Positions 2,687 through 32,386 of a stretch of DNA of 37,519 nt are shown here, piece by piece. The notes below the pieces were generated by a model, which worked only from the letters and a program-made list of their open reading frames with translations, searched no databases and was not told the origin of the DNA. The DNA comes from Cyanophora paradoxa CCMP329. Its lineage: Eukaryota > Plantae > Glaucophyta. The translations under genes were made by a program, and so were the position numbers. The stretch is taken from positions 1-37,519 of the forward strand of contig QPMI01000403.1 of NCBI GenBank assembly GCA_004431415.1, given 5' to 3'. Numbering within the stretch: the first letter of the stretch is position 1; the number at the start of each line of letters is the position of its first letter.

Positions 2687-2692
2687 TCAGCG
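2687..2692 (+). repeat. Left target-site duplication TCAGCG
   Basis: TCAGCG immediately precedes the left TIR and recurs immediately after the right TIR; 6-bp TSDs are typical of Polinton RVE integrases. Confidence 0.9.
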
Positions 2693-2765
2693 ACACATAT
2701 GAATATTCATATTTTAATCCCTCGGCGTTCCGCCTCAGGATTAAAATATGAATATTCATATGTGT
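2693..2765. other. Left terminal hairpin palindrome (28-bp perfect stem, 17-nt GC-rich loop)
   Basis: ACACATATGAATATTCATATTTTAATCC (2693-2720) pairs with GGATTAAAATATGAATATTCATATGTGT (2738-2765); loop CTCGGCGTTCCGCCTCA contains a GGCG-TTC-CGCC mini-stem. Confidence 0.92.
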
Positions 2766-3515
2766 GATTCGATGTTATATCAATAAAATCGATTAATTTA
2801 TTTGAATTTTCATATGAATTTTCATATTTTTATATGCATTTTCAATTTATTTAATCGATGTTATATCGATAAACTCGATTAATCGATATTGTATCTTAAT
2901 TGTAGTTAATCGGAATTATATCAATAACTTCGATTGATCTTAATTGAATCCTAAATGAATTTAATCGGAATTATATCAATAAATTCGATTAAATCATGTT
3001 CTTTCCGATTAAATCAATTAAATATTTAACTTTGTTACCATAAGTGGTCTAAGTTGACTCACTTTCATAAACATTTTGAACTCTTAGTCTCCTTGAATTT
3101 CTTAAGATGACTCAACTTAGTCAACTTAGTCAACTTTGTTACCATAATCAATCAGGGTGGACTCACTTTTAGATCAACTTTGAAATTTCAAGCAAAAATC
3201 AACTTTGATTTCAAAAGTGGATCTTCTAAGTGGACTCAAAATGTTCACTTTGTGATACATGTTTGCTATAATCCTTACTGTTTATGGTCAGGGTTGACTA
3301 AGTGGGGGGAGTTGACACATTTTTTGAAATCCTTTTTAGAAAACTTTTGGTCCCAAATATTTCCTGTGAAATTTGAGTCAACTCAACCCACTTAGTCAAC
3401 CCTTGCATTGAATTCGTAACAAAATCCATATACTATTACTACTTTTACGATTAATATGAGTCAACCTTGAGTCCACTTTAATATAAATATTATATAATAG
3501 GGGGAATCAAGGGGA
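2693..3515 (+). repeat. Left terminal inverted repeat (~820 bp)
   Basis: 2693-~3065 is the near-perfect reverse complement of ~28568-28941; ~3349-3515 matches ~28388-28554 with a few mismatches; ~3066-3348 has no counterpart on the right. Confidence 0.92.
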
Positions 3516-3711: not shown

Positions 3712-4110
3712 TTAAAACGGGAATCTATCATGTTTATGTCTCTCAGTCTTCTCAAATGTGAGGAAATTCATTGTTTTATCGATCTCATCTGCTACTGATT
3801 GTGTTTTATGCTGAGCTTCTTTACCACAACTGAATATATCAATTGCTAACATGCCTTCATTGGAATAACAATGAGCTGTACAATGGCTTTCATCTAATAG
3901 CAGAACCAAAGCAAAACCAGGAGGTGATAGTTTGCCATCAAATATCTCACAGTGTTTATGAACAATCCTAATGCCTTGTCTTAATACTGCTTGTTCAAGG
4001 GTTCCCATAATCCAATTACCTAGGAAGCTTACATGCTCATGTCCTGTTGCAATAGCTGATTTAGCCTTGTAATCAAGCATAACATGAAAGCCTCTGTATT
4101 TAGTCTCCAT
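3712..4110 (-). CDS. speD: S-adenosylmethionine decarboxylase proenzyme (prokaryotic class 1B, SpeD/SpeH-like)
   Basis: 132 aa; G-x-H-V-M-L-D N-terminus, SPPG, LLDESHCTAH with the E-S-H autocleavage/pyruvoyl site, and DIFSCG. Confidence 0.88.
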   Translation of the reverse strand: METKYRGFHVMLDYKAKSAIATGHEHVSFLGNWIMGTLEQAVLRQGIRIVHKHCEIFDGKLSPPGFALVLLLDESHCTAHCYSNEGMLAIDIFSCGKEAQHKTQSVADEIDKTMNFLTFEKTERHKHDRFPF

Positions 4111-12100: not shown

Positions 12101-12471
12101 CCTGTGTTCTGTTTGCCCTGCTCATCTTGAACATTGAAAATCAATCGACCACTATCGAACCTAGAAGGTATATCTGGGTGAGTGCCACTGGTTTTGAGTT
12201 TCCTAGGTCTCCTTCTTGTTGCTTTGATCTCTGCTACTTGGTTGGCTTTCACATTACCCAAACTAAAAGCAACACTGACATCCTCTTTATCTGGATCGGT
12301 TTGATTCACAGATAAAGCATGCTCCCTTGATTGAGTCTTGGATGAATTATCGGAGCTGTGGTCGATTGAAACTGAACCCTTTACTTTAATGTTATCAAAG
12401 TTCACATGCTTGGTGCTGCTTGCATTATCATCTTGAATTGTTTCTAGATTTGGTGGGTAATTGAAGCTCAT
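6166..12471 (-). CDS. Giant fibre/spike protein (~2100 aa reconstructed from ORF pieces 7678-12471, 7388-7663, 6918-7232 and 6166-6957)
   Basis: Phage-fibre-type HTHTKDQITDFA and HxHxWxEIxxKP repeats, YLPLxGGT motifs, ATVATSGNYDDLINKP, two LamG/ConA-like modules (EVIVFNRALT), C-terminal H-type-lectin/gp53-like domain (VTFPKAFAAAPEVV); three single-base restorations (~7723, ~7453, ~6985) join the pieces. Confidence 0.8.
9232..9385 (-). repeat. 36-bp tandem coding repeat (HTHTKDQITDFA, about 4 copies) in the fibre gene
   Basis: Near-identical units such as aaatctgtgatctgatctttggtgtgagtatgggc; related units near 7380-7530 and 6730-6800. Confidence 0.85.
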
Positions 12472-12514: not shown

Positions 12515-14070
12515 ATGCCTCTCAAAGTAGTTCTCAGTTTGTCAGGGGGAGGTGCAAGGGCATTATCATAACCAGGCTGCTAAAAGAAATCGAAAATCGA
12601 ACTGGCAGGAGAATAATCGATCTTGTGGATCTTGTGAGTGGAACTTCCACTGGTGGGATCATTGCAATAGGTTTGAATATAAGGCATCCTGATAAACCAG
12701 GTGAACCTAAACTGACAGCAAACGATTTACACAATATTTACCTAACTCAACTGCCCTTGATTTTCGCAAATCCTCGAAATATAATCGAAAATGCCCTTTT
12801 TAATACAAAGTATGATGTGGGACCCTTGGAGACTGCAATCAATTCAGTTACTGGTGAATCACTAATACAGGATTCCCTAAAGGACATTGTGATCACATCC
12901 TTTGATACTCAGAATATGAAACCAATATTTATCACAAATGACAACAATTACAACTTTATGCCTTGTAAGATTGCTGCTAGGGCTACTTCTGCTGCTCCTA
13001 CATATTTCTCTCCTGTAAGCATTGTTGATTTCAATCGGGGAGTATATGTCTGTCTAATTGATGGTGCCATTTCGGGAAACAATAATCCCAGTGTGTGTGG
13101 TTACAGCCATGCAAAGAAAATTTACAGTGATGATGATGATATTATAGTAATAAGTATATCTTGTGGAGAGGTGGACCCACATTTAGAGTCTGATTATGTG
13201 GGTTATGCTTATGAGACTGTCAACAGCTGGGGCATTCTCTCATGGATTGCCTCAACAGATGGAAGCCCATTGATTAACATGCTCATGGCTGCAAGTGAGC
13301 TTTCTGCCCTTGATAAGATGGAGGAGTTGTTACCCTACAACTATGATCAGGATTATGGGAGATACTATAGGCTATCAGTCCCACTTCCAAATCATATAGT
13401 AAGCTCCCTGGATGACACTTCTAAAATCCCAGACATGCTTGCATTCACTGAAACATACATTGCAGCAAACAATGATATGATTAATAAGCTTTGCAGCATT
13501 CTAGTAGCAAACTATGAATTAAAGAACCCTTCAAAGGCTTACATATCATCCACTCTCACTACATCACCTCCTTTGGATGCAAATTGGTATCAGCTTGCAG
13601 ATGATGCCTTCACTGCCTCATCCTCTGTGACAGGTAAAGAGCCTTTCATGGCTAGACCTTCAGCATTTGGCTGGGAAGCTGGAGCCTATGCTCCTGAGCA
13701 GATATGGGAAACCCCCACTGAATACCTTCAAGTTGCTTTCCCATATACTTTCGAACTCTCCTCTGTTATTGCCTATGGTTCAGGGGACACCAATGCTTTT
13801 ATTAAGACTTTCAATGTGGCAACATCCACTGATGGGATCAACTGGTCTTTTATTCGATCAGATGGGCAGAACAAAATATATGTCTGTGAGAACATTAACA
13901 ATGCTCACAACTCAGGTGATGTTGCTTTATTGAGTGGATTTCCTCTCAGCATCAAGGATGCTTTTTACATAGGTTTTTCTCTCAGAATCAAGTATATTCG
14001 CATTTATCCCCTTGTGTATGTGAATGCTCCCACAATGAGAGTGGACTTTACAGGTGCCTTTATTCGATAA
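12515..14070 (+). CDS. Patatin-like phospholipase fused to a C-terminal F5/8 type C (discoidin) domain (~518 aa; one frameshift at ~12558-12560)
   Basis: Reconstructed N-terminus MPLKVVLSLSGGGARG (oxyanion motif), GTSTG nucleophile elbow, RATSAAPTYF, DGA; C-terminal FTASSS...EYLQVAF...STDGINW...KYIRIYP...MRVDFTG discoidin pattern. Confidence 0.88.
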
Positions 14071-14992
14071 ACTCCAACTGAAAAGAATTGTCGATTCCAT
14101 TCATATCAATCAGTTCACCAAAGTAATCTTTAAACTCCACAGTGAGTTCCCTTATCACCAGGTTTCTGTCATTTATCTGAATGAATTCGGCATGCTCACC
14201 ACTATGGTAAACATAGCCGCCTATATCTTTACTCAATTGCAGTCTAAGGATTGCCCCCTGGTTATGTGGTTGCGATTTCGGGATTATATTGTGTCTGCTG
14301 GCAAAGGGGGACAGCTCTTTAATATGCATGTACAGATACTGCTCAGCATTCATATCAGACATCTTCCTGCTGTCAAAATAATATTGCAAGGGCTTAGATG
14401 AGAGTCTGGGTCCCGAAAAGGTGGTTCCCCATGCTGGGTGATCAGGTGTAATAGGTTTGCCATCATACTTTAACAGGTTCTCAGGTCGATAGGGTGATCC
14501 ACCAACAGGAGGAGTGCTATAATACCCATTGGTGTATTCAGTAGAACTCACACCCAAAAGCTTCCCTATTCTCTGGTTGCTTGCAATAAAACGAAACTCA
14601 TGGTTACTGTAAAACTCCACTTTATAGGTAGTTGGGTTATAGAATATCTTGAACTCAAAAGCTACTGTTTTGCCTGCAATGGTTTGGAAGCTTGAATAGT
14701 TCAGCCCATAATTATAGGGATGTGTGACCCCAAAATGACCCTGGTTAATGTAGCCACTGGGAAGGGGATACACTTTCTGTGTGATGATTTCATTGTATGA
14801 ACCATCTTGGTAGTTAAACTGAACTGTTAAATGATCAGTCCCCACACTGTTATAGATACTGTTTGGAATCTCTGCATATAGAACCCTGCATTCTCTTGGT
14901 CTCTCTACTGGAGTTGTGAGAGTGACCCTGTAAGAGTTTTCATTTTGTCCTTGGCTTCTATCCCTGCTATCAATATTAACAAGTCGATTCAT
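14060..14992 (-). CDS. Minor capsid (penton-like single jelly-roll) protein 1
   Basis: N-terminal VNIDSRDR and AEIPNSIYN plus C-terminal LTVEFKDYFGELIDMNGIDNSFQLEF, typical of PLV/NCLDV minor capsid proteins. Confidence 0.8.
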   Translation of the reverse strand: MNRLVNIDSRDRSQGQNENSYRVTLTTPVERPRECRVLYAEIPNSIYNSVGTDHLTVQFNYQDGSYNEIITQKVYPLPSGYINQGHFGVTHPYNYGLNYSSFQTIAGKTVAFEFKIFYNPTTYKVEFYSNHEFRFIASNQRIGKLLGVSSTEYTNGYYSTPPVGGSPYRPENLLKYDGKPITPDHPAWGTTFSGPRLSSKPLQYYFDSRKMSDMNAEQYLYMHIKELSPFASRHNIIPKSQPHNQGAILRLQLSKDIGGYVYHSGEHAEFIQINDRNLVIRELTVEFKDYFGELIDMNGIDNSFQLEFIE

Positions 14993-15021
14993 TTTAATAT
15001 ATAAATATAGATAAAAGAAGA

Positions 15022-16032
15022 ATGCCTGTGGATTACATCGAGGTTAGCTCATTTAATACAATCTCTGGTGATGGTCCCACATCAAGCTTTGTGGCAAGAC
15101 TCCCCAGTAGTTATGAGAATGTGAGGGCTGTGAGACTGGTATCAGCCGAATTTTATAACAGCATCCCTATGGTGAGTGGTGAAACCAAAGTTGGAGATGT
15201 GACAGTTGACAATGCATTTAGCATTTATTATTCTGAACAAACTCCTGGAGCTGGAAGCTCAGGAATTCCAACAGTTCGCCCAGCTGCTGACTATGAACAA
15301 TGGAAACAATTCATTATAAGTCGAAACACCCCCATCCAAAGCCACCAACAACTGGTGAATGTAATTAACTCTAAATTCGAAGGCAGAAATCCCCAACCAT
15401 CCGTTCGCTGCAAATGGGATGAATCACTGAAACGAATTATATTCCACTCAGCAGTACCATTTTACTTGGCTTTCTCAGTAGCTGTGAACCCAAGCCAACA
15501 AACAATCCAAAAGCTATTGAGTTCAGCTAGACTGCTTGGTCTTGATCCTGGAAGATATGGCAATTCCTCAATCCAATCACAAGTTTATGATGCTCTCACT
15601 GATGGAATCTTTACTGGTGGTCGAGTGAATGGCATTATATCTTCTTTTGAGCCTGAGAAGACCAGGGACAGTGTTTTGTTTGTGAGAGTAAAGGAGCTGG
15701 GTGATCTGGTGCAATGTGGGGATGGTCTTCTGACTGGTTACTTTCACAAAATAGTGGTCCCTGACAAAGATTATGGTGAGCATGTAGTTTACAATTCGAC
15801 AGAGGCTCATCCACTTTACAAATACTATAATAAGAAGGTTGGATTATCCACTTTCTCGGTTGATATTGTAAATGCTATTAATGAACCAATTGATTTTGAG
15901 GGTCAACCTGTTCATCTGACCTTTGAAATTCGCTATGGTGATGAGCCAGCAGGAGACCCAGTTTATGAATACTTTAAGATGCGAATGTCACAGCTTCACC
16001 CTTCCTATCCAGTAATTACAAGCTTCGCATAA
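15022..16032 (+). CDS. Minor capsid (penton-like) protein 2
   Basis: FVARLPSSYENVRAVRLVSAEFYNS and FSVDIVNAINEPIDFEGQPVHLTFEI match the same penton pattern; directly upstream of the MCP. Confidence 0.75.
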   Translation: MPVDYIEVSSFNTISGDGPTSSFVARLPSSYENVRAVRLVSAEFYNSIPMVSGETKVGDVTVDNAFSIYYSEQTPGAGSSGIPTVRPAADYEQWKQFIISRNTPIQSHQQLVNVINSKFEGRNPQPSVRCKWDESLKRIIFHSAVPFYLAFSVAVNPSQQTIQKLLSSARLLGLDPGRYGNSSIQSQVYDALTDGIFTGGRVNGIISSFEPEKTRDSVLFVRVKELGDLVQCGDGLLTGYFHKIVVPDKDYGEHVVYNSTEAHPLYKYYNKKVGLSTFSVDIVNAINEPIDFEGQPVHLTFEIRYGDEPAGDPVYEYFKMRMSQLHPSYPVITSFA

Positions 16033-16085: not shown

Positions 16086-17452
16086 ATGGATATCACTTCC
16101 ACTCTTCAAAGACTTTCGCTGAAAGAAGCCCTAACAACCCCAGAGGAGGCGAAAGCCTTTTTCCTGGATAACTCCCTTATGCTTGGACTCGAATCCAAGT
16201 CTAAGCCAGTTCTAGTTGTTGTGAATCCAGCAATACTTTTGAGAATAATGTTGGAAATCGCATTTCCTTCAAGCTACCTCGCTACAATTTCTGTGGAAAA
16301 CTCGAACTTGCTTTCGACCTACCAGAAATCACTTTTGCTGGTGAAGATCTAGTTCGCAATGGATACACTCGCCCAGTTGGTGCTTTAGTTCAGCGACTTG
16401 AAATTACCTATGGATCTTACACCTACCACATCCCTTCTGATTTCCTTGCTCATTTCCCCCTGGTCTATTATTCGGAGGATCAACTAGCTAAAAAGAAACG
16501 CTCAATGGGCATGGTTCATGGTATCCCTGCTCATGGAACCAACCGACTTGGTGGCTCATTTTTCGTTGAAATCCCAGTGCCTTGGCTAAATCACTATCTT
16601 CCCCTTGGTGCTTTATCTGGTGAAATGGTTGTTACTGTTTGGTTTAAGGATGCTGGAAAGGGTTATGTTGAAACTTCCTATGGTGGTCGCTCTCTCCCTG
16701 TTGTTGGTGGGACAGCTGCTGATAAGACAGAAGATGATGGTCTTGGTGATACTGCTAATGCTACACTTGCCCATGTTGGTCAAAACATCACCACTTTCAG
16801 TCTTGGTGCAACAACCCCTGCTATTTCAATTACTTCTCCTCGCCTTTACATGCATGCTATTAATGTTTCTGATGAGCTTTTCGCTACTGTAATTGAAAAA
16901 GTAAAGACAACTGGCATGGCTATTCCCTCCCTTGATATTGGATTTGTAGATGCCATTGCTTTTGCTGCCAAGGGCAATGCCCAGCCCAATCGAATTAACC
17001 TCTCTCAAATCTCAGGTCTTGTCTATGCTCTGCTTGTTTCAGTTCGTGATTATGAGACTGTTGACAAATCCAATGGCTCCCACAGTGTTCTTAAGACCTA
17101 TGCCAACTCCAAAGAGATAACATTCACTGTGGAAATAAATGGTCAGCGACTTTTTGCCACTGAGCCAATTTCCCTACTCAAAGGTGCTGAGCTAATTGCT
17201 GATGCATTCAAATGCTCTAACATGGATAAGGTTGCTGATCGCTATGTCCTTTCGGGTATGAGTTTCTGCCTTAATGGAGAAAATGCGATTCGAAATATCG
17301 CTCAAAGTGGCTTTGTCGACCTGACAAATTCCTCATCTTCATTCCTCACACTCTACATGCCCACAGATAAGACAATCAATGTTCAAGTTCGCGCTTTAAT
17401 GCATAGTTTCCTCATTATAGACGGTTCAGGTGTTCGTAGAATCAATTTATAG
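16086..17452 (+). CDS. Double jelly-roll major capsid protein (~455 aa; one frameshift near 16215-16230)
   Basis: Joining frames gives NRISFKLPRY...ALVQRLEITYG...FFVEIPVPW...YLPLGAL..EMVVTVWF...VEINGQRLF...GFVDLTN...VRALMHSFLIIDG, the usual DJR motif order; lies between penton and ATPase. Confidence 0.8.
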
Positions 17453-17511: not shown

Positions 17512-18243
17512 ATGCAAGATTTAGAAGAGTTTAATGTTTCTGAAATGATTAAAGGTGTTTTCAGAGCCATTTTTATAGGCAAAAGTTGTACGGGAAAAAG
17601 CGAATGTGTAAAGTATTGGTTAAAGCAATTACATGATGCCAAAGTTATTGATGTTGTCCTAGTTGTGAGTGGGACCAGCTTTAATCATTTCTGGAGAGAG
17701 GTTGCAACAGTAGAACTTGGTAAATGGGATGCTGGTTACATTTCAAAGCTTTTGGATGAAAGGCAGGAGAAAATCGAAAAAGGTGAACCTGTGAACCACA
17801 TGTGTGTTGTTTTAGATGATTTAATTGATAATGAGATAATTGATTTAACAAGAGACAAGGTGGTGTCATCTCTGTACAGTAGGGGCAGACATTCGAAAAT
17901 ATCCATTATCTGCATTACACAGAAACTCAGAAAAGTCTCTTCCACTATTCGAGTTAATTCTGATTATGCTGTTTTCCTGAGTGCTGCTAATCGCAAAGAA
18001 CTTGAAGCCATAGAGGAAGAATACAATATAATGCGAAACAAGGAGGACTTTTACAAAATGTTTGAAGAATATGTCCACTCCTATCAGTATATCGTTTGGT
18101 CCTCTGCTGGCTACTCAGTTAAATACTTTGTAGATAAAGCTGAGCTTGTCAAAGACTTCCCATTTCCTCGCTTCCACAGAAAGCCAAAAAAGAAAGAAGA
18201 TGAACTGAAACCACCAGAGAAAGAGGAAGCCCCAAAGAAGTGA
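17512..18243 (+). CDS. A32/FtsK-HerA-like genome packaging ATPase
   Basis: Walker A GKSCTGKS, Walker B VVLDD, A32 signature RGRHSKISIICITQ, IRVNSDY. Confidence 0.93.
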   Translation: MQDLEEFNVSEMIKGVFRAIFIGKSCTGKSECVKYWLKQLHDAKVIDVVLVVSGTSFNHFWREVATVELGKWDAGYISKLLDERQEKIEKGEPVNHMCVVLDDLIDNEIIDLTRDKVVSSLYSRGRHSKISIICITQKLRKVSSTIRVNSDYAVFLSAANRKELEAIEEEYNIMRNKEDFYKMFEEYVHSYQYIVWSSAGYSVKYFVDKAELVKDFPFPRFHRKPKKKEDELKPPEKEEAPKK

Positions 18244-20276: not shown

Positions 20277-22871
20277 ATGAACAAAATCGAGAAATTCGCC
20301 ACCCCTGTTGAAAATGCTACATTCCTTAGTACTCTCATTGGTGATCGCAACAAGGTCACCCATGTATTTGATTCTGCCGAAGATGCCCTTGAAGCCATTG
20401 ATAATAGCAAGGTTAAGACCTGGGCTGAATGCATTCAACCTGAGCAAGTGACCAGAGTTTACCTGGACCTGGATAAATTCGCTGATTTGAAGGAGAACAT
20501 TGCTGATAACTATGCTGAGGCGGAAACTGTTGTAAGAGAGATGAGAGATAAGCTATGGAAGCGATCTGGTACCACTTCTATTAACGATATTGCTGTTGCA
20601 GTTCGCCATAGAAGGGTTTATTTGATTAAGGAGGATGTCACCAAGTTCAAGATTTCAGCCCACTTTATTATTAAATCGCTTGCATGCAAACATGAAGATA
20701 TCCCCAAGCTTTTCAAAGCGATGGGATTGGTGAAAAATGAGGATTATGACAGTGGAGTTTACAGCTCCACACAGAACCTAATCTGCCTCAATTGCTGCAA
20801 AGGTGAGACTCTGGATGCTCAAAATAAGTCGAAAAAAGATGTTGATAAAAACGTTTGCTTTAAGAAATTCGTTGACTGTGACAAAGTGTTAATGCGAAAT
20901 GAGGACTTCTTTGTATCTTACTTCTCAGCTACTACTAAACTTGTGGATGAATCGAATATTTCTGCATTCGCAAATTATAGCCCTGAGCCAAAACCAGTTA
21001 AAAAGGAGCCAAAAAGTGATAAAGTGAAGACTGAGAAGGTAGAAGCTGAAAAAGACACTGAACCCGAAAATCCTGTTACTTTCGAACTGCTACAAAGTGT
21101 TATAATGGGTCTGAATGGTGAGAGAGCTAATGAGTATAAAACTTGGATTGATGTAGGACTGGTCATCATCAATGTTGGGGAAGACAACAAGTTCACCCCT
21201 AAAATGCAAGCTGAACTCTTCCACCAATTCTCAGAACAGAGTGACAAGTATGATTATGATGAATGCCAGGAGAAGTTTACACAGCTTCGCAGAAGCAAGA
21301 AGAAGGCTGAGCCTGGCAAAGTGTTGACCTTCAAATCCTTGGTTTATTGGTTGAGCAAAGATAACAATGAGCTTTTCAAGGAACTCTTCCCCAAAAAGTA
21401 TGCATTCCTACCAGAGGACACAGATGAAATCGATTACAAGACTGCAAGTATCCCTCCTTTGGCTGAACATTACAATGTGCATAAGAGGTATTTCAATGCT
21501 CGAATGCATCATGTTGAAAATGTTGGTTGTGTGATGCTCTGGGATGAACAACTACTTTGCTGGATGCCCAAAGATATTGGGAAGCTCTCTACAAAGCATT
21601 TCCCCCACTTGATGCATAAGGTGATTGTGAATGAGGGGACAGATAATGAGAAAGAGAAATGGGAGCAATCATTTAGGAAATGGATTGTGGATCCAACAGC
21701 CACAAGATCAACTTACATGGATTTCCTTCCCCCTCCTGCTACTCTCAGTGCAAAATGCAAGTCTGTATTTAATCTCTATCCAGGAATGAAGGTCGACCAT
21801 CAGCAATTCGAAAATGCTCCAGAGGATGTAACTGCTGAGATGATTAAGCCTTTCCTAGATCACTTGTTCTTAATGTCTGGTGAGGATCAAAATACCTATG
21901 AATATCTGTTGAAATGGTTTGCCCACATGCTGCAAAAGCCTGGGGAACTCAATGGAGTATCCTTAATCTTCATTGGTGAGCAGGGAACTGGTAAAAATGT
22001 GTTGGTTGATACTTTCCAAAAGAAGATACTTGGAGATGCCCTAAGTTATGCAACTGGAAAGCCAAAAGAGGATCTGTTTGGTCGATTTGCCCACAATAGA
22101 GAGGATAAGATCTTGATTGTTGTGAATGAAGCCTCAGGCAAGGACACATTCGAAAATAATGATATGCTCAAAGATCTCATAACTTCTGATAAGATTGTAA
22201 TTGAACACAAAGGGATAGATTCATACACAAAAAGCAACTTTGCCAGGATTATATTCACCAGCAATAACAACATTCCAGTGAAAATTGAAGCTGGAGATAG
22301 GCGATTTGTGGTTGTTGAAGTTAGTAAGAAATTCGCAAAGGATAGGTCATACTTCCTTCCACTTGTAAAATGGCTAAATGATCACTGCAATATTCGAAAC
22401 ATTGCCCACTATTTGAGAACCAAAGTTGACTGTGAGGATGTGAACTGGATTGCTGATAGACCCCTTACAAATAAATACTATTTAGCCCAACAGGTGTGCG
22501 CTCCAATCATTCTTATGTTCACTAAGTGGCTTGTGGATCGAGGCTTAATTTCCGAGAATAAATGCAAGTCTGGTAGCCTTGTGGAAACCTGGAAGTGGTT
22601 CCAGGAGTTTATTACCAGCAATAAATATAAAAACGATTATAATAGTCGCCGATATTATACTGAAATGAGAAGTGTTACATATATCCAAGTGAAAACTACA
22701 AATGGCAAACAATACTATCATTTCCTATTCCCACAAGTATTTGAGGAATTCAGAAAGATGAAGCTTGTAGATGATGAGACTATTGAGGAAGAAGCTAATC
22801 CAAGGATGAAACAGGCCCTACCTGCTGCTGATCCTGATGCATCAGATTATGATTCTGATGTTGAAGTTTAG
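20277..22871 (+). CDS. Primase-helicase: AEP primase + PriCT-2 + SF3 (D5-like) helicase
   Basis: AEP motifs VYLDLD, SAHFII and DSGVY; PriCT-2 YKTWIDVG..FHQFSEQSDKYD; Walker A GEQGTGKN, Walker B VVNEA, motif C FTSNN, DRRF arginine finger. Confidence 0.92.
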   Translation: MNKIEKFATPVENATFLSTLIGDRNKVTHVFDSAEDALEAIDNSKVKTWAECIQPEQVTRVYLDLDKFADLKENIADNYAEAETVVREMRDKLWKRSGTTSINDIAVAVRHRRVYLIKEDVTKFKISAHFIIKSLACKHEDIPKLFKAMGLVKNEDYDSGVYSSTQNLICLNCCKGETLDAQNKSKKDVDKNVCFKKFVDCDKVLMRNEDFFVSYFSATTKLVDESNISAFANYSPEPKPVKKEPKSDKVKTEKVEAEKDTEPENPVTFELLQSVIMGLNGERANEYKTWIDVGLVIINVGEDNKFTPKMQAELFHQFSEQSDKYDYDECQEKFTQLRRSKKKAEPGKVLTFKSLVYWLSKDNNELFKELFPKKYAFLPEDTDEIDYKTASIPPLAEHYNVHKRYFNARMHHVENVGCVMLWDEQLLCWMPKDIGKLSTKHFPHLMHKVIVNEGTDNEKEKWEQSFRKWIVDPTATRSTYMDFLPPPATLSAKCKSVFNLYPGMKVDHQQFENAPEDVTAEMIKPFLDHLFLMSGEDQNTYEYLLKWFAHMLQKPGELNGVSLIFIGEQGTGKNVLVDTFQKKILGDALSYATGKPKEDLFGRFAHNREDKILIVVNEASGKDTFENNDMLKDLITSDKIVIEHKGIDSYTKSNFARIIFTSNNNIPVKIEAGDRRFVVVEVSKKFAKDRSYFLPLVKWLNDHCNIRNIAHYLRTKVDCEDVNWIADRPLTNKYYLAQQVCAPIILMFTKWLVDRGLISENKCKSGSLVETWKWFQEFITSNKYKNDYNSRRYYTEMRSVTYIQVKTTNGKQYYHFLFPQVFEEFRKMKLVDDETIEEEANPRMKQALPAADPDASDYDSDVEV

Positions 22872-23063
22872 GTTTACTCAAAAGTGGACTCATGGTTGAC
22901 TCAAATTTATCATAAAAGACCCAAACAGTCTTTTATTTACGGTTTATTTATCGATTAGGTTGACTAAGTGGGGGGAGTTGACTCATTTTTTCACAGATTC
23001 TAAAAAAGGACTCTGCCCTAAAAAGAAATAAAAAGTGCCTCAACTCCACCCACTAAGTCAACC
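22872..23063. promoter_or_regulatory. Internal copy of the TIR motif cassette (inverted GGTTGACTAAGTGGG...CCCACTAAGTCAACC pair plus GACTCA motifs); candidate origin or regulatory site
   Basis: 22958-22990 nearly matches 3292-3324; 23041-23063 resembles 3379-3401; AAGTGGACTCA.GGTTGACTCA at ~22882-22903 matches the right TIR at ~28425-28446. Confidence 0.7.
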
Positions 23064-23114: not shown

Positions 23115-23465
23115 ATGGCTGGAACAGATCATGATTCTGGATCGATCTATATGATTGAGAGTGAAGAATTGAATAAAGTTTATATAGGGAGAACCTCACA
23201 GCCACTACAAAAAAGATGGAGACAACACAAATCAGGTCAAATGCCATCAACAGCAGACCTATGCAAGGCTTCGGATGTGAGGTTTTCAGTCCTTTATTCA
23301 ACTAAGAAGGGTGGGCATGAAGACCTTATGAACAGAGAAGCATATTACATGTATCTCTTTGAACCTTGGATAGTCAATCTACAAAAACCGAAATCTCGAT
23401 TTAGGATTAATAGGTTTTTGCGATTTCATTCAGAGGAAGCCAATGGATCCATTAAAACATTTTAA
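23115..23465 (+). CDS. GIY-YIG endonuclease
   Basis: SIYMIE...VYIGRT...LQKRWRQH...REAYY...VN pattern. Confidence 0.88.
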   Translation: MAGTDHDSGSIYMIESEELNKVYIGRTSQPLQKRWRQHKSGQMPSTADLCKASDVRFSVLYSTKKGGHEDLMNREAYYMYLFEPWIVNLQKPKSRFRINRFLRFHSEEANGSIKTF

Positions 23466-23525: not shown

Positions 23526-26500
23526 ATGCCCCGAATTACCAACAAACTCATAAGGGAGAAGAAATGGGAACTCATGGGATTGCTGGGAACACTATATGCA
23601 GCCCATGAAATAACAGAGGATGAATATGACCGGGAAATAGATTTAATTGCAAGGGGCAGACCCACTTTAAGCAGATTAACCAGAAAAGCAAATAACCTAT
23701 ATGATAAAATTGAAACCTTGGATGAACTGGATAGGCTTAGGCAAATAGAACCAGAGGCAGAAGATGGAACAGCCATGAATGAATTATATCGCTGGCTCAC
23801 ATACAGAGCCAGAAGGGAAGTTGTTGTAGATGTGATTGAATTCCTGGATAGAATTGCTACATCCCTTCCAAATCGATTAAAGCAGGGTTTAGATCAATTC
23901 AGGGCAATCAAGGTTCGCTTGTCTTTTATCTGCAAGTTCGTTAAAGTGAGCAATCCACAGGTTTGGATATCGAAATACATTTACAGTGATTACTTTGTAT
24001 TAACCAGGTCGAGAAATATTCGAACTGAGCTGAATAAAGCAGCCCAAATGTGTCAGGAGCAGATGAATGTGGTTGATAGCTATCGCTTAGAAAGAATTGA
24101 AATACTCAGAGTGGCTATTATGAGTTATGCTCCAACTGGTGGATGCTTTCTACAAACCCCAGAGTGGATTGCTAGGAAGAGAGCCACAGTGAATATTCGA
24201 AATATAGATGATTCCTGCTTCGAAAATGCGATTTTAGCCTCGATTTACAGAAAATCTATTAACTCCAATAAGAGGAATGAGCTTTCACAATATCGCAAAT
24301 GGAAATACTCAGCAATCGCTTATAATCCGCTGGCTCTCAATTTCGACAATATCCCATTCCCTGTTGCCTGTGATGCTGAAATAATTGATAAATTCGAGGC
24401 TCAAAATGCAGGCATTAGCATTAATATATTCGGAATCGATGGAGAGGTTGTTTATCCCTGCATCAATCCAGTAACCCAGGCAGAAAGCATAAGGTTAATC
24501 TCATGCTGATATTTGATGATGAAGGGAATGGTCACTATATTACAATCATGTCCCTTTCAAGGCTATTGAAAGTAAACCATGAAACATACAATGATCAGAA
24601 GTTACACTACTGTGATACATGCTTATCTCGATTCAGGTCTGAGGCTAAACTCACTGCTCATGTGGACTCAAACAGATGCATTGATTGGAGACTCTCAAAG
24701 GGAATCACCCCTAAACCTGAGACCACCATAGAGTTTGGACTGAAAAACCTCAGGAAAACTGTGTGGCTTCCTGTTGTGGTTTACTGCAAGATTGAACATA
24801 GAAGCATCCCCATTGATGCATCGAAATCCAAGAGGGAAGTCTCAGCAGTGAACCTTAGAGTAGTCACTGGGGAAGATGTTCAAGATTTTCGATTTGAGGG
24901 TCAGGATCCAATGGGAGGTCTCTTTGAATGCTTGGAGTCCAAAGCAAGAGAACTAATCGATTTCCTGTTTACCAATATTCCCATGAATGAACTCACAGAT
25001 GAGCAGAAAGCTGTATATAGGGCTACCAAACACTGTTACCTTTGCAGTGAGAGGTTCACCAAGGAGAACTTTAAATGCAGGGATCATGATCATCACACAG
25101 GTAATTATATTGCTCCTGCATGCAGAAACTGCAATCTCCATAGGAGAATCTCAAAGCAAACCAAAGTTGCAGTTGTTGTTGACCAAATGGATGACTGTGG
25201 GACATTCATTTTCAGAAAAATAGCAGGTATGGGTGATAAAAAGCGAATCGAAATCCTTTCGAAAAACTTTGATCAATACCTTTCATTGCAATGGGGTCTT
25301 TACAAGTTCATTGATGCAAGCAATTTTATGGACTTTGGAGCTGCTGATGTAGATGAGTTAATGAACAAATTCCAAGCCTTCAGAAGGCTTTCACACTCAG
25401 TATATGGACTTGACCCAGTTCATTATGTATCTGCACCTGGGTTATCTTGGGATGCTATGCTTAGGACCACCGAGGCAAAAATAGAGCTTATAAGTGATGT
25501 AGAGCAATACGAATTTGTTGAGAGGGGAATCAGGGGTGGCTTTGCAACAATGCCTTGTAGGTATGCTGAGGCTGATGGTGAGAACTCCCACATTATGCTG
25601 TTTGATGCTAACAACTTGTATGGCTACTGTTTGAGTCAGCCAATTCCAGTTGGTGATTTTAGATGGGAGACCGAATTCAACCCACAAGATAACAGATCCA
25701 GTTTCCTGGAAGTTGATCTGGATTACCCAATTAGGCTGTTTCTAGATCACAGTGATTTCCCTCTAATTATTAACAAGAAAATAGTAGAATATGCCGAATT
25801 ATCACAATATCAAAAAAGCCTATTGGATCTCTCAGGAGAAGAGCTTGATAAAACCCCTAAGCTAACTGCAACCTTTGGTTCTGTGACCAACTATGTAGTT
25901 TCTGAGCCTCTTCTACAATACATGTTAGCTAAAGGTGTGAAACTAAAGAAGGTTCACAGGGTCCTATCATTTACTGTGGCTCCTGTAATGAAACCCTACA
26001 TTGAGCTGAATACTGATATGAGAAGGAAAGCAGTGAATAAATTCGAGGCTGATTTCTATAAGCTCATGAATAATTCAATCTATGGGAAATGCATTGAATC
26101 ATGTAGAGGTCGATCTGTGGTTAAGATTGCCAACACTGAGAAGCTATTTATGAAATATGCAGCTTCCCCATTGGTGAAATCAACAAGTCCCATAAGTGAA
26201 AGGGCAGTTGCCTTTGAGTTTTACACAAAGCATGTGAAGCTAGATAAGCCTGTTGCAATTGGGGCTTATGTTTTGGATGCAGCCAAACTGCATAACTACA
26301 AGTTCTTCTATGATACTGTAAGGTCCCAGTGGTCAAAAGCAAAGTTACTATTCCATGATACTGATTCCTTTTGTCTATATATTGAATCTAAAACCCTTCA
26401 AAAGGACCTAGAGAATATATCCTTTAATCTGGACTTAGGAGGACCTAACAGAATGACCCCAGGTAAATACAAAAATGAGATGCCAGGTTCTGCTATATTG

Positions 26501-26770
26501 GAGTATGTAGGTCTGAGAGCCAAAGTTTACTGTTTCAGAACAGCTGAGATTGAGAGAAGTAAGCTATCTGGGACTTCCACTGAGGAACTCCAATTCAATG
26601 ATTTTAAGCAGTGTTTATTTGCAGGTATCAGCAAGACTGTGACTGCAAAGCAGAAAAGAAGGGCAGATCACACAATAATAGACACTGTGAGTAGAAGGGT
26701 TGCCCTAAACTGCTTTGATGCAAAGAGATACATCTTACCAGATGGTATTAATTCTGTTCCTTTTAATTAA
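23526..26770 (+). CDS. polB: Polinton-type (protein-primed family) DNA polymerase B polyprotein (~1081 aa; one frameshift at ~24456-24458)
   Basis: Adding one C joins 23526-24509 and 24503-26770 (VYPLHQS..HKVNLML..GHYITIMSLSRL); VNIRNIDDSCF (vOTU-like), CxxC..RDHDHHTG..CRNCNL (endonuclease VII-like), motif A DANNLYG, motif B KLMNNSIYGK, motif C DTDS, GLRAKVY. Confidence 0.93.
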
Positions 26771-26773
26771 GAG

Positions 26774-28159
26774 ATGCCAGCAACTGGAAGAATAGTTAGG
26801 AGAACCACTGAGCAACTGCAAGGAAACCTACTGCCTATCACAGTTCCCAAGGAGGAAAAAGGGGAATCTCGAATTGTTAAAAAGTCTGAGATGAAAGAGC
26901 TTGTCCCAGTAGAGATCCCAGTTGCTATTGCAGTGAAAGAAACTAGCAAGATTGCCAAGAGATTCTATGATGTGAGAACAGGTTACAAAGGGCTTCAAGC
27001 TATGAGGGCTGAGTTACCAGATGAATCCTATAAGCAGTTGCAAGAGTTCTATAAAAAGCAGGAAGTTGTTCAGATCAATGCACCTGCTATATCTAGGAAG
27101 AGAGATCCCATGGTTCCAATAAGGCAACCCCTTGATACCTATGTGATTGATTTGCTCTTTTTCCCAGCTTATAAGAAACAAAACAATGGCTATGATACAT
27201 TTATGACTGCAATGGAATCAACACTGAGAACTGGATATATCATACCTATAAGGGATAAATCAGCTCTCACTACATTAGCTGCATTTAAACAGCTTGAGAT
27301 GAGAGTAGCAAGACCCATAGTAAAAGTTCAATCAGATGCTGGGAGTGAATTCCAAAATCGAATATTCCAGGAGTATTTATCTAGTAAATACATAGAACAC
27401 CAAGTGAGTGGAACTGCAGACCATAGGAGCCAAGGTCGAATTGAAGCCTTTAACAAGCAGATTAAGAGACTGATCACAAACTACTGCATAGCTAATAACA
27501 CAGCTAGATTCTTTGATGTGTTGGGTGATATTGAATATAATTACAATAACACAGTTCACTCAGCTACTAAGATGAAGCCAGGTGAAACTACAGAGGAGCA
27601 TTATAGGTATATAGTGGGATTAGAAGATGAAAGATTCAAGAAATCAATAGCTTATCTTGATACCATGCAGCCTGGCATGTTTGTTAGAGTGAAAGTAGAG
27701 AAGAACCCCTTTGCTAAACAGGGTAACAATTGGTCTAGGATGGTTTACACTGTTGATAGTAGAGAAGGCTTTAAGTTTAAGCTAAGGAGTCCCACTGGAG
27801 AGATCATAGATAACAGATTTGCATTCCATGAGCTGTTGCCTGTGAATGCAGTTGAGTATCTGGAAACACCCACAGTGGATGCCTTAGAGCAAGCTAAAGA
27901 GGAAGCTAGGGTTGATGCTTCTATAAGGAGAGAGGGCATAGAAGCTGCTAATGAAGTCCCAGATAAGCCTTTGATAGAGGCTAGAAAGGAGAAGGCTGGC
28001 AAAGTTAACAGGGAACTCAAAAAGCTCACTATAGCAGGCACACAGAAACTTTCAGAAGTGAATAGCCAGAGATGGTATAATGACTTTCAGACTACTAAGG
28101 AGTCATATACAGCCCCTAAACCTCAAAGAACACTAAGAGAAAGGACCAAAACTAGCTAG
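26774..28159 (+). CDS. int: Retroviral-like (RVE) DDE integrase
   Basis: VIDLL (D), QSDAGSEF (D), QGRIEAFNKQIK (E), YNNTVHSATKMKP, SH3-like PGMFVRV...NWS; consistent with the 6-bp TSD. Confidence 0.93.
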   Translation: MPATGRIVRRTTEQLQGNLLPITVPKEEKGESRIVKKSEMKELVPVEIPVAIAVKETSKIAKRFYDVRTGYKGLQAMRAELPDESYKQLQEFYKKQEVVQINAPAISRKRDPMVPIRQPLDTYVIDLLFFPAYKKQNNGYDTFMTAMESTLRTGYIIPIRDKSALTTLAAFKQLEMRVARPIVKVQSDAGSEFQNRIFQEYLSSKYIEHQVSGTADHRSQGRIEAFNKQIKRLITNYCIANNTARFFDVLGDIEYNYNNTVHSATKMKPGETTEEHYRYIVGLEDERFKKSIAYLDTMQPGMFVRVKVEKNPFAKQGNNWSRMVYTVDSREGFKFKLRSPTGEIIDNRFAFHELLPVNAVEYLETPTVDALEQAKEEARVDASIRREGIEAANEVPDKPLIEARKEKAGKVNRELKKLTIAGTQKLSEVNSQRWYNDFQTTKESYTAPKPQRTLRERTKTS

Positions 28160-28387: not shown

Positions 28388-28941
28388 TCCCCTTCATTCC
28401 CCCTATTATTTTATATTTATATTTAAGTGGACTCAAGGTTGACTCATATTAATCGTAAAAGTAGTAAAAGTATATGGAATTTGTTACGAATTTAATGCAA
28501 GGGTTGACTAAGTGGGTTGAGTTGACTCAAATTTCACAGGAAATATTTGGGACCTGAAGGTTTATAAAAAGTGAGTCAACTTAGACCACTTATGGTAACA
28601 AAGTTAAATATTTAATTGATTTAATCGGAAAAGAACATGATTTAATCGAATTTATTGATATAATTCCGATTAAATTCATTTAGGATTCAATTAAGATCAA
28701 TCGAAGTTATTGATATAATTCCGATTAACTACAATTAAGATACAATATCGATTAATCGAGTTTATCGATATAACATCGATTAAATAAATTGAAAATGCAT
28801 ATAAAAATATGAAAATTCATATGAAAATTCAAATAAATTAATCGATTTTATTGATATAACATCGAATCACACATATGAATATTCATATTTTAATCCTGAG
28901 GCGGAACGCCGAGGGATTAAAATATGAATATTCATATGTGT
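28388..28941 (-). repeat. Right terminal inverted repeat (~555 bp)
   Basis: Reverse complement of the left TIR, lacking an internal ~280-bp segment. Confidence 0.92.
28869..28941. other. Right terminal hairpin palindrome
   Basis: Exact reverse complement of 2693-2765. Confidence 0.92.
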
Positions 28942-28947
28942 TCAGCG
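28942..28947 (+). repeat. Right target-site duplication TCAGCG
   Basis: Identical to 2687-2692 and directly abuts the element end ...CATATGTGT. Confidence 0.9.
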
Positions 28948-28999: not shown

Positions 29000-31900
29000 A
29001 CCCGCTCTTGGCGATGGACTTGTATTCCGCCACGAAATCGTATGTTTTTCCACTCAAAGCGTCCCAAATGAAAAGAAGGACTTTGTTAGAAGCGGACGTA
29101 TACGTAGTCCCAACGACCGGCGGAGCCGCAAGAAGCCTCGGGGGGGAGACGCCAACGTCGAGCAGCTGCGAATAGGTTTCGCAGGCTTACACATTCGCTC
29201 TTATCGCAGTTGCGCGCCACGCATGCGCAATTGCAAGCATGCGTACCTTCAGAGAGCTGTCCGTAACAGCAGCGCCTCGAATCCACTGACCGTTGAGCTT
29301 GAACTGGACGACGTCCTGCTCTGTGGGAGCGGTGATGTACCTGCACGAGCAATGTAAGGGTTACATTTGCATGCAAGAAACGAAGATAGAAAACTTGAGG
29401 TGCGAACCAGGCGGTCAAGGCGTCGTACTGACCCATCTCGAAAGTCACAGCCAACGTTTTGGTCGTCGCCGCAGCACTCAGCGTAGACGGATCGGGCGCC
29501 AGTCCCGAAGGGCATTTCGCTGTGTTCGAGAAAAGCATGCAAAGTTTACGATTAGCTGCGACGAAACCGTGCGGCCTACAGCTGCGAGTCGAAAGGCCTA
29601 ATTTATAAGGCAGTCAATGTCGCACTGAAAGCGTTTGCGCTGAAGCCTCCACCAGGGGTCTGATTGTCGCCTCCAGTGCTGCCCTGGTAGCTCGGATTCG
29701 AGACAAACACGACAACGAACTCGGCTCCTTCCGCAGCGTCGACGATGGGGAATGCGCTTGTGGTGATGGTGGGCTTGCCCACCCCACGCCAGAGAGCGGA
29801 TACGCCGCCGAGCCGCCGACGATTTTCGTTGATGTGGCAGTAATCTCGAAGACCTGCATGAGGGCGGGTAAATCGAGCAGTCGAACACGCGCATATGCGT
29901 GCACGTGCACGTGTGTGCTTGCACGTCATGATCACATGCGAATTTGAACGCACATACATCACATCGTACCACCAGCTATCTTCACCGTCAATCTCAGTCC
30001 AGCGCCAACTGAGACTGCAGCCAGAGCTTGAAAGCTGGCTCGATCGTTTGACAGTCCTACGCAAAATACTATCACAACGACTTGCAGGCAGTGGTACGTA
30101 TACCGATGTCGCACCAGGCCTGCAAGTGGCTTGCCGGGTACGGCTTGATCTTGACCTCTTCGTAGATCAAGTCGGGGCGCAGCTCCACCGAGGCAGAAGC
30201 GAACGTTTTGGTGTCCTTCGCTCCAAGAGTAGCATCTGGCGAGGCCGTCGCTGCGCGATTCGGCATGCGCTCGTTAAATGCATTGGCGTTCACGTATGAT
30301 GATGAGCTCGAGCTTACATCCGCTCTTTGCGATTGATTTGTACTCGGCCGTGAAATCGAGCTTTCCCGTATCCCCACGCGCGGCATAGCCTGCATTGTTG
30401 TCGCCGTGCTTGTGCAAGAACACGAAGAGCCTGTTCGAGGCCGTTGTGTATGTTGTCCCGACGACCGGCGGGGCCGCGAGGAGCCTCGGGGGGGAGACGC
30501 CGATGTCGAGAAGCTGCTCGAGCGGATCGGGATTGTGCATGTACAGAGATTGCGCCTGCGGCGGGCTACCTTGATGGCATTGTCATTGACGGTCGTTCCG
30601 TCGATGGCGGTCCCAGTGACCTTGAACTGGATCACGTCCTGCTCAGTGGGAGCGGTGACGTACCTGATGCGAATTTGCATGAGCGTTAAATATTTGAGGC
30701 AAACTTCAATCTAGTGCTCGAATGCTAGTTAGCTTGAGTGATTGCGATTGCGCGCGAGCACCAGCCATGATCTGCGCAGCAAAACAAAAGTCAAAAAAAT
30801 GTCTAAAATACACAAACATTACATATATAAAAAGCGGCCGTCTCGCCTCGTCGTTGTAGTTGGCCTCGTAGAAGGCGGTCATGGTTTTGGTCGTTGAAGT
30901 AGCATTCAGAGTGCTTGGTACGGCCGGAATCTGAGGGCACTTGGCTGCGCGAGTGCCGGCTCATAATCAGGCATATGCCGATATGTATAAACGCATGTGC
31001 TGTCTCGAAGTCGAACTTGAAACCGCCAATTGAAAAGGAAAGGAAACTCACGGGAAACGAACGCTCGGAAACCGCCTCCGTTTCCGTCGCTCCCTTGATT
31101 AGTATCGTCACTGTGGAAGATGACGAGAAGCTCGGCGCCGGGTTCGGCAGTGAACGGGGGAAACTTTTTCGGATTAGCGAGAGGATTCTGGTTTCCCCAG
31201 CCTGCCCCGTTTCCTGGATAGTATCCTTCAGCTTCTCCAGCAACAAGTCGGGTAGAAGTGCTTGTCATCTCAAACACCTGAGGGGTGCACACGGTGCTTA
31301 GCTATAGCAAAACCTAAAATTTGCAAAAACTTTTAGTTTTTATTGGCCATGGCAGATCAACGTTCACGCACATACATCACATCATACCATCCGTCGGCTT
31401 GGGAATCAATCTCGAGCCACTTCAACCAAAGTTTGTTTTCGCAGTCGGAAGGAATGGAAGCGGGAAGCTTGACTTGCCTAAAATCGCGTACAGCTCGTGA
31501 TTAAGAGGGCGAAAGAGTAGCCGGGCTGGCGCGTGAGTTCGCGATCGAGCACGCACCAGGCTTTCATCGTCTTCGCTGCGTAGGGCTTAATTGCAACCTC
31601 GCGACTCGAAGACGTCGCCGAAATGCTCGCGGTCGCTGTGTGGACCGAGGACGTGAAGGTGCCCGTCACGCTGGATGAAGAAGTGATGGTCGCCGAGGCA
31701 GTCGCTGCGCACGCGCACGCGCCCGACCGCAATGAGCCGTACATGTGCGCACAGGTGCAGGGACGATAGCCCGGGCAGGGCGGCGCGCACAACCAGCCTT
31801 CGCAATCGAATTGTACTCGCCACGAAACTGGTCGCCGCATCGTACTGCCAGAGAAACACAAAGAGCTTGCTGGAAGCCGCTGTGTACACCGTGTCGAGGG

Positions 31901-32386
31901 CCGGGGGGCGGCGAGTAGTGTCGGGGAGAGACCCCAACGTCCAGGATCTGAGCGTGATCATGAGATGATTGCAATGCGCGCGCGCAAGATTCGAGGGACG
32001 CAAAACATGATCGAATTCGAACCTTCAAATTATTTGCGATGCCGGTCGCGGATGTGACCTTGAACTGAACGACGTCCTGGTCCGTGGGTGCGTAGATGTA
32101 CCTTTGATTCGCAGTTGCAAAGCGCGCACGGCCGAAATCAGTACCGTGCACGTGCAACATTCGCATGCGCGAACATCGCGCGCGCACCAACCGAATACCT
32201 CAGCATTGTCCCGCTGGTATTGCACGGTCATCGTCTGCTTCGTCGACGTCGCGGCCAGGCCTCCGGTTGGGGGGCCGGAGACGAGCGCCCCCGCCGACGC
32301 TGCGCGAAAAGGAGGACGACGAGCGCGGCCCGCAGCCACGCGCACGCCTTCGCGGGCGTCGACGTCGGAGCCATTGCCGCACTCAT
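29000..32386 (-). CDS. Host multi-exon gene, 5' part: secreted/surface protein with tandem CUB-like (and possibly discoidin-like) repeat units
   Basis: Signal-peptide-like start MSAAMAPTSTPAKACAWLRAALVVLLF; recurring exon peptides APTxQDVxQFKV, DVGVSPPRLLA..GTTYT.ASN.LFVF..FxAEYKSIAKSG, KPY.A....AWC, W.EID....WYDV and AELLVIFHSD..GGGFRA, separated by short GT-AG introns; exact exon borders not all resolved. Confidence 0.68.

Follow-up and report, generated by a model that had tools for sequence, protein, structure and literature searches.

How is a polinton-like element copied when its DNA polymerase (PolB) appears to have lost the proofreading exonuclease? The question is raised by one gene in the window, by which we mean the whole 37,519-nucleotide stretch of contig QPMI01000403.1 of Cyanophora paradoxa CCMP329 that was analysed (Table 1). 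The gene lies in a 26.2-kb virus-like element (2693-28941) with a GC content of 39%, against 54-58% in the flanks. These GC-rich flanks show that the element is integrated in a eukaryote-like genome, and only that. Several GC-rich, gene-like segments that resemble one another occur on both sides of the element (1292-2410 and 29070-32170); they had no Pfam match, and their similarity suggests that the element may have been inserted into a tandem gene family.

The ends of the element are well defined. In the terminal inverted repeats (TIRs), the outer block (2693-3004, 312 bases) is 100% complementary to 28630-28941 and the inner block (3332-3515) is 94% complementary to 28388-28571. The two tips are formed by 73-nt hairpins that adjoin the target duplication from inside and carry a mismatch near the tip; the left one has a fold energy of -29.5 kcal/mol (z -14, with z -13 for the right one), and they are the only hairpins with perfect arms of at least 20 nt in the window. 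Hairpin orientation is the same at both integrated ends, with no flipped form among the entries listed. A control for hairpin ends, admittedly a weak one, yielded four long hairpins among 115 loci of relatives, and of the two that were inspected one was subterminal (L003) and the other had an undefined end position (L041). The element ends begin with ACAC, a short repeat. The internal TIR-like copy may be a relic end or a transcription signal; inverted pairs of GGTTGACTAAGTGGG are present in this copy and in the left TIR, while the right TIR has a single one. A shorter element, suggested by an opposite-strand joint at 22991/28571, was rejected, as the left TIR accounts for the joint.

The gene content is that of a virus-like element. 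Within the fibre-like genes (6166-12471), which encode lectin-like and LamG-like domains, a 1.9-kb stretch is duplicated, and there are 36-bp repeats (HTHTKDQITDFA) as well as an acidic repeat region; at 12916-14070 a patatin-like phospholipase is joined to an F5/8 type C domain. The two divergent ORFs that follow, which from an N-terminal motif look like minor capsid (penton) genes, had no database match in Pfam or PHROG. Assignment of the next gene as the major capsid gene is a lead drawn from its resemblance to Atlas neighbours, some of which have Capsid_NCLDV in 13-18% of their members; the recognition value of this resemblance is low. No Ulp1-like capsid maturation protease was matched by Pfam or PHROG among the ORFs scanned, some of which have no assignment, and the lack of such a protease has been described as typical of PLVs (PMC4642659). 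The integrase has its D, D and E residues in place and gave tblastn matches to integrases beside the PolBs of relatives. The primase-helicase gene (AEP-S3H), 650 bases upstream of PolB, is intact, with DxD (20460-20474), SxH (20655-20666) and Walker A (21975-21998) motifs; 14 of the 15 listed differences among its copies are synonymous, and its homologues amount to only three matches, all distant. Frameshifts are present in this copy near 7680 (fibre), 12560 (patatin), 16250 (major capsid) and 24455-24460 (PolB). They appear to be assembly errors or very recent damage, the outer TIRs being identical.

Table 1. Features of the element, in window coordinates.
Feature	Position	Strand	Evidence or remark
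Left target-site duplication, 6 bp	2687..2692	+	identical copy 28942-28947
Left terminal inverted repeat (TIR)	2693..3515	+	two complementary blocks with right end
Left terminal hairpin, 73 nt	2693..2765	.	perfect 28-bp stem, small internal mismatch, short tip
S-adenosylmethionine decarboxylase-like gene	3712..4110	-	Pfam PF02675 E 3.9e-11; left end of element
Two divergent genes, candidate minor capsid (penton)	14060..16032	.	ORFs
Candidate major capsid gene	16086..17452	+	Atlas neighbours 0.96-0.98
A32-like packaging ATPase	17512..18243	+	Pfam PF04665 E 2.7e-12
AEP-PriCT2-superfamily 3 primase-helicase (AEP-S3H), 864 aa	20277..22871	+	Pfam PF08707, PF19263; PHROG primases
Internal TIR-like copy	22881..23063	+	69% to inner TIR 3292-3479; between primase-helicase and GIY-PolB-integrase block
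GIY-YIG nuclease	23115..23465	+	Pfam PF01541 E 1.2e-10
PolB N-terminal part, terminal-protein (TP, D1-like) domain	23526..24509	+	39% identical to P0001 1-315
PolB C-terminal part: zinc finger, degenerate exonuclease domain, intact polymerase, TPR1 and TPR2	24503..26770	+	Pfam PF03175
Degenerate Exo I	24773..24796	+	Asp to Lys, Glu kept
Zinc-binding endonuclease VII-like insert in exonuclease domain	25031..25147	+	conserved, 59% to P0001
Degenerate Exo II	25181..25201	+	His-Asn gone, catalytic Asp to Gly
In-frame deletion site, ~95 aa	25307..25384	+	KGxYPY stretch gone; Exo III Tyr to Phe, Asp in register
KPVAIGA segment after TPR2	26246..26269	+	two residues common to all four exonuclease-less proteins, rare elsewhere
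RVE retroviral-type integrase	26774..28159	+	Pfam PF00665 E 1.4e-4 (below cut-off); PHROG transposase E 4e-11
Right TIR	28388..28941	-	tip is a 73-nt hairpin, 28869-28941

The frameshift in PolB separates the gene into its two parts, and contigs of other copies have a one-base indel there; the first-pass annotation had missed both the gene start at 23526 and this frameshift, as well as the known exonuclease loss beside helicases in mavirus and Tlr1-type pPolBs. In the N-terminal part, the likely TP-linking Ser lies in VDSY (24069-24089), opposite the GSGW Ser of relatives in the alignment; the loop around it is about four residues shorter than theirs and lacks their Gly. The vOTU Cys is found in DDSCFE (24207-24224) and the vOTU His at 24533-24535. 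In the model of P0001, a 1083-aa homologue encoded in one ORF on one Logan contig and 49% identical to the window PolB, the order of strands and helices in the N-terminal part matches the description of D1 (TP) given in section 6 of PMC11161782. Alignment and secondary-structure order thus point to a TP domain in which the linking Ser is likely kept, and to a vOTU with its Cys and His in place.

The polymerase itself is intact, as the first-pass annotation had stated for motifs A, B and C. Motif A (DANNLY, 25604-25621), motif B (26060-26089), motif C (HDTDS, 26354-26368) and YGLDPVHY (25403-25426) lie in one frame with the remains of the exonuclease, VVYCKIE (24776-24796), VDQMDDC (25178-25198) and FIDASNF...FQAFR (25307-25384). 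Motifs A, B, C, KxxE and KxY are all intact in alignment A6, which comprises the window protein, three other exonuclease-less proteins and 55 exonuclease-intact relatives chosen from the search matches. Motif spacing (A-B 152, B-C 99) compares with 143-167 and 99-106 in 233 relatives (5th-95th percentile), and both the length of TPR2 and the TPR1/TPR2 spacing are kept. In an AlphaFold model of the C-terminal part (pLDDT 92), the exonuclease domain still has its beta-sheet core and the Exo III helix. The best match of this model is phi29 polymerase (Z 21.1, with an rmsd of 3.0 over 483 residues); a sequence search among solved structures gave no match. The ORF ends past the thumb with no fused C-terminal superfamily 1 helicase, as does that of P0001.

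Compared with this conservation, the exonuclease domain has lost much of its active site. At the Exo I Asp, 53 of the 55 relatives have D and the other two a gap, whereas the window protein has K; at the Exo II Asp, all 55 have D and the window protein has G. These two lost residues correspond to D12 and D66 of phi29, Asp12 and Asp66 being among the active-site residues listed for that polymerase (PMC4974454). The segment from FID to FR, which had been put at about 20 aa, is indeed strongly shortened, its exact length being 24 aa as against 109-143 aa in 54 of the 55 relatives, about 95 aa below the usual. The remaining relative, P0163, has a smaller internal deletion (57 aa from FID to FR) and still has the Asp of both Exo II and Exo III. 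Counted back from the FxxFR anchor, the Exo III Tyr is Y in 225 of 227 scored relatives and Phe in the window protein; the Exo III Asp is D in all 227, and an Asp in FGAADV of the window protein is in register with it. The window protein thus has a counterpart in register for two of the four carboxylates, namely the Exo I Glu and the Exo III Asp, and P0001 has one for none. The earlier readings of Exo I, of Exo II and of the missing KGxFPY-type stretch and Exo III Tyr were therefore borne out, and the full set of catalytic acidic residues was not retained when checked by alignment and model, the active-site geometry being judged from the alignment only. The wider claim that the exonuclease was lost holds for its catalytic residues, two catalytic Asp being replaced and a deletion present, but not for the domain as a whole, the core of which persists. 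With these residues missing, PolB is likely error-prone, that is, without proofreading.

Several lines of evidence indicate that this state is shared rather than peculiar to one copy. P0001 has the same 24-aa segment, which supplies the homologue with a deletion of equal length that had been called for, and no other copy with a full exonuclease appeared among the contigs listed. The element was present in 20 of the 24 runs listed, in at least 8 runs at about half of the words, and the deletion site is bridged gap-free by contigs from four runs (X3, X9, X15 and X16), with no indel or joint among the differences listed for 24760-25900. The copies are seen solely as contigs aligned to the window. 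Among them, 26 of the 38 listed PolB differences are synonymous (21 of 30 in the exonuclease remnant, 5 of 8 in the polymerase part), giving a pN/pS of 0.12 (P 3e-10) with each site scored singly against the window codon; of the 12 non-synonymous differences one is a stop, in a single contig of depth below 5. The PolB gene, including the exonuclease remnant, is under purifying selection, and the first-pass view that the loss is not random decay stands. No RNA source was found among the listed runs; X15 and X16 were guessed to be RNA, and no evidence of expression was taken from them. In X1 and X9, contigs are about twice as deep over PolB as over the primase, and depth cannot rank the genes. 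At loose contig ends (25167, 25194, 25554 and 25896) short pieces are readable in which Exo II also looks degenerate, so that a more distant PolB family seems to be present in the same organism.

Exonuclease-less proteins are rare among relatives. Of the 269 PolB matches, only P0001, P0200, P0212 and its cluster mate P0269 proved exonuclease-less by inspection, ten other matches missing one of two motif patterns and keeping the other. P0200 and P0212/P0269 form a second exonuclease-less polinton-type pair, 43% identical, in which the deletions differ in length. Viral contigs scanned with PolB, AEP-S3H, P0001 and P0212/P0200 yielded no member of the exonuclease-less groups, the 80 loci from a metagenome scan were all ordinary relatives, and a search of shorter proteins found no close fragment, the best identity being 43% in the best 120 of 740 matches.

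In trees of the polymerase part (270, 40 and 22 rows), which comprise search matches without named references, the pair of window protein and P0001 (support 100) and that of P0200 and P0212 (99) take separate places among exonuclease-intact proteins. The exonuclease was thus probably lost twice, the P0200/P0212 pair being of separate origin. A single clade of all four exonuclease-less proteins was not rejected (AU p 0.09, quick tree), and the four have three rare residues in common, two of them just past TPR2, a number reached by 0 of 63 control quartets. These three residues may reflect either common descent or convergence. By median tree distance, exonuclease-less rows rank 1, 2, 4, 5 and 6 of 270, two of them with unusual letter composition. 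In a comparison with 34 loci that carry a PolB as well as an integrase gene, the window has rank 1 of 35 for PolB and 10 of 35 for the integrase, with integrase distances near saturation; from these ranks the acceleration looks PolB-specific. Such a long branch fits a changed job of the polymerase better than a genome-wide rise in mutation rate.

The closest known system is the pPolB of Polintons, Mavericks and adintoviruses (TP-vOTU-exonuclease-palm). The window PolB is 30-38% identical to hundreds of these proteins and resembles them in domain order, zinc fingers and TPR1/TPR2; in the fold search against viral models an adintovirus PolB came first (E 4e-46), and the named neighbours are adintovirus and MELD PolBs. 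The element is also Polinton-like in its RVE integrase beside PolB, TIRs, 6-bp duplication and A32 ATPase. Unlike Polinton pPolBs, the window PolB has Exo I-III inactivated and about 95 aa deleted, and unlike Polintons, the element has an AEP-S3H gene, hairpin ends and no maturation protease among the ORFs scanned. Presumably, the window pPolB belongs to group 2; it lacks the conserved Exo I, II and III motifs of group 2 polinton pPolBs. In INT-linked pPolBs of that group, the exonuclease motifs are described as conserved in all taxa examined (PMC10748475).

Loss of the exonuclease has been described in other lineages. In mavirus pPolB and Tlr1-type pPolB-S1H, it goes with the gain of a helicase (PMC11161782), a relation that has been restated since (PMC13215967, PMC12721341). 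The mavirus virophage combines a pPolB with an exonuclease remnant, TP and vOTU with an S3H helicase and an RVE integrase in one genome (PMC11161782). Its pPolB is of another lineage (fold-search rank 40, 10% identity to the window PolB), whereas the window PolB keeps most of the exonuclease fold and its neighbouring helicase is fused to an AEP primase. With an exonuclease-deficient pPolB, an S3H helicase and an RVE integrase, the element would work like mavirus, without being a member of that group. Similarly, in the pPolB-S1H of Tlr1-like elements and transpovirons, an exonuclease-less pPolB derivative is coupled to a helicase (PMC11161782), whereas the window helicase is of superfamily 3 and encoded by a separate gene with no fusion, and the polymerase is full, with a thumb. 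Virophages and PLVs of Halocafeteria seosinensis have palindromes at the TIR tips by the target duplication and an RVE integrase; some have a pPolB and a D5 primase-helicase, and hairpin priming has been proposed for them (bioRxiv 10.64898/2026.07.28.741278). The word exonuclease is absent from the available text of that report, and the likeness lies in ends and gene content. Our literature search, which covered article texts, turned up no polinton-type PolB that lacks the exonuclease and lies next to an AEP-S3H; the element itself may be contained in supplementary catalogues of these surveys.

Based on this comparison, we favour, with moderate confidence, the reading that the element is copied by an active protein-primed polymerase without proofreading, with the S3H helicase likely unwinding the DNA. 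The TP domain would prime at the element ends and the vOTU would then cut the TP off, the AEP might prime the displaced strand, and the integrase would insert the linear product, yielding the 6-bp duplication. With a helicase available, the parts for proofreading and unwinding would become dispensable. Exonuclease-site mutants of phi29 polymerase lose strand displacement. The exonuclease domain of that polymerase helps to form the template tunnel behind strand displacement (PMC4974454), and in the window PolB its remnant would persist as a scaffold, which is suggested by the purifying selection on it. The link to the helicase is drawn from the gene context of this single element, which is likewise the weak point of the first two alternatives below. 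None of the 115 loci of relatives, many of which are partial and some overlapping, contained an AEP-S3H match, and 24 loci of at least 10 kb have Exo II and Exo III intact; one locus (L102) does have a 481-aa P-loop ORF. Several observations speak against this reading. Plain protein priming needs no terminal hairpins, the loop around the TP Ser is altered, the long branch is PolB-specific and the gene is frameshifted in this copy. In addition, AEP-S3H is by itself a common PLV replicase (PMC12220804, PMC4642659, PMC11296320, bioRxiv 10.64898/2026.06.19.733378), and the state with two replicases is perhaps transient: two-replicase elements have been described (bioRxiv 10.64898/2026.10.13.758929) and read as transient states (bioRxiv 10.64898/2026.10.13.758929, 10.64898/2026.07.28.741278).

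The foremost alternative, possible though clearly less probable, is that most of the element is copied by AEP-S3H, alone or together with a polymerase of the host or of a giant virus, and that PolB rebuilds only the ends. TP priming on a folded-back 73-nt overhang, or hairpin resolution, would then provide complete termini for the integrase, and such short patches would need no proofreading, by analogy with end patching at Streptomyces telomeres. In the Tap/Tpg system of Streptomyces, a linear replicon with terminal palindromes combines TP priming with internal replication (PMC4513846); its proteins are unrelated to those of the element, and the analogy serves this alternative only. The hairpins exactly at both ends, adjoining the target duplication, are consistent with it, as are the intact AEP motifs and the purifying selection on that gene, the PolB-specific long branch, the remodelled TP loop and the changes in common after TPR2. 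Further, terminal palindromes in Halocafeteria elements go preferentially with non-pPolB replicases and RVE integrases (bioRxiv 10.64898/2026.07.28.741278), and pPolB occurs in tight association with the DDE integrase, so that both may work at the same end (bioRxiv 10.64898/2026.10.13.758929). However, TPR2, the processivity and strand-displacement element of phi29 (PMC4974454), keeps its length, mavirus replicates with an exonuclease-less pPolB, and the two hairpins have the same orientation. A Streptomyces-like split, in which the primase-helicase copies the body and a protein-primed PolB without proofreading serves the integrase by rebuilding the hairpin ends only, a role that polinton PolBs would have reached more than once with the same changes by TPR2, is slightly more doubtful still. 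The first-pass suggestion of a polymerase repurposed for end filling or hairpin extension thus draws support from the hairpins, the second replicase and the long branch, but is weakened by the retention of TP, vOTU, TPR1 and TPR2.

Whether polymerase and helicase are related in function at all may also be questioned. A mobile block of GIY, PolB, integrase and end could have joined an AEP-S3H virus after an earlier exonuclease loss unrelated to the helicase, which we regard as improbable. The 69% copy of the inner TIR sits exactly between the primase gene and this block, and repeat-bracketed second replicases are on record (bioRxiv 10.64898/2026.10.13.758929); yet the internal repeat lies 3' of a gene block, oriented just as its two TIR copies are, and may be a transcription signal, and both replicase genes are under purifying selection. 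Far less probable is a residual exonuclease in which metal is still bound by the Exo I Glu, by two Asp beside Exo II and by the Asp in register with Exo III: these acidic residues exist in the window protein, but the lost Asp are those equivalent to phi29 D12 and D66, nothing is left of the Tyr or of the KGxYPY lysine region, and all four carboxylates are missing from P0001. That a dead copy is decaying, which the frameshifts in the PolB, capsid, patatin and fibre genes might suggest, is the least credible and is refuted as the cause of the exonuclease loss, as the deletion is present in P0001 and other copies, the differences are mostly synonymous, the outer TIRs are identical and the duplication is perfect; the frameshifts are another question, which concerns this copy or its assembly.

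The loss described here is therefore real and conserved, and it is subject to selection. It is one more, independent instance of lost proofreading, in a PolB lineage from which this had not been described. A natural phi29-like polymerase without an exonuclease may be of technical interest. The trade-off between exonuclease and helicase was proposed from two virus groups (PMC11161782), to which the element adds a case from another PolB lineage. As the dead domain is for the most part still there and close relatives have an intact exonuclease, this trade-off becomes testable with purified proteins. The finding bears also on why pPolB and the RVE integrase travel together, and on the role of terminal palindromes in polinton-like viruses.
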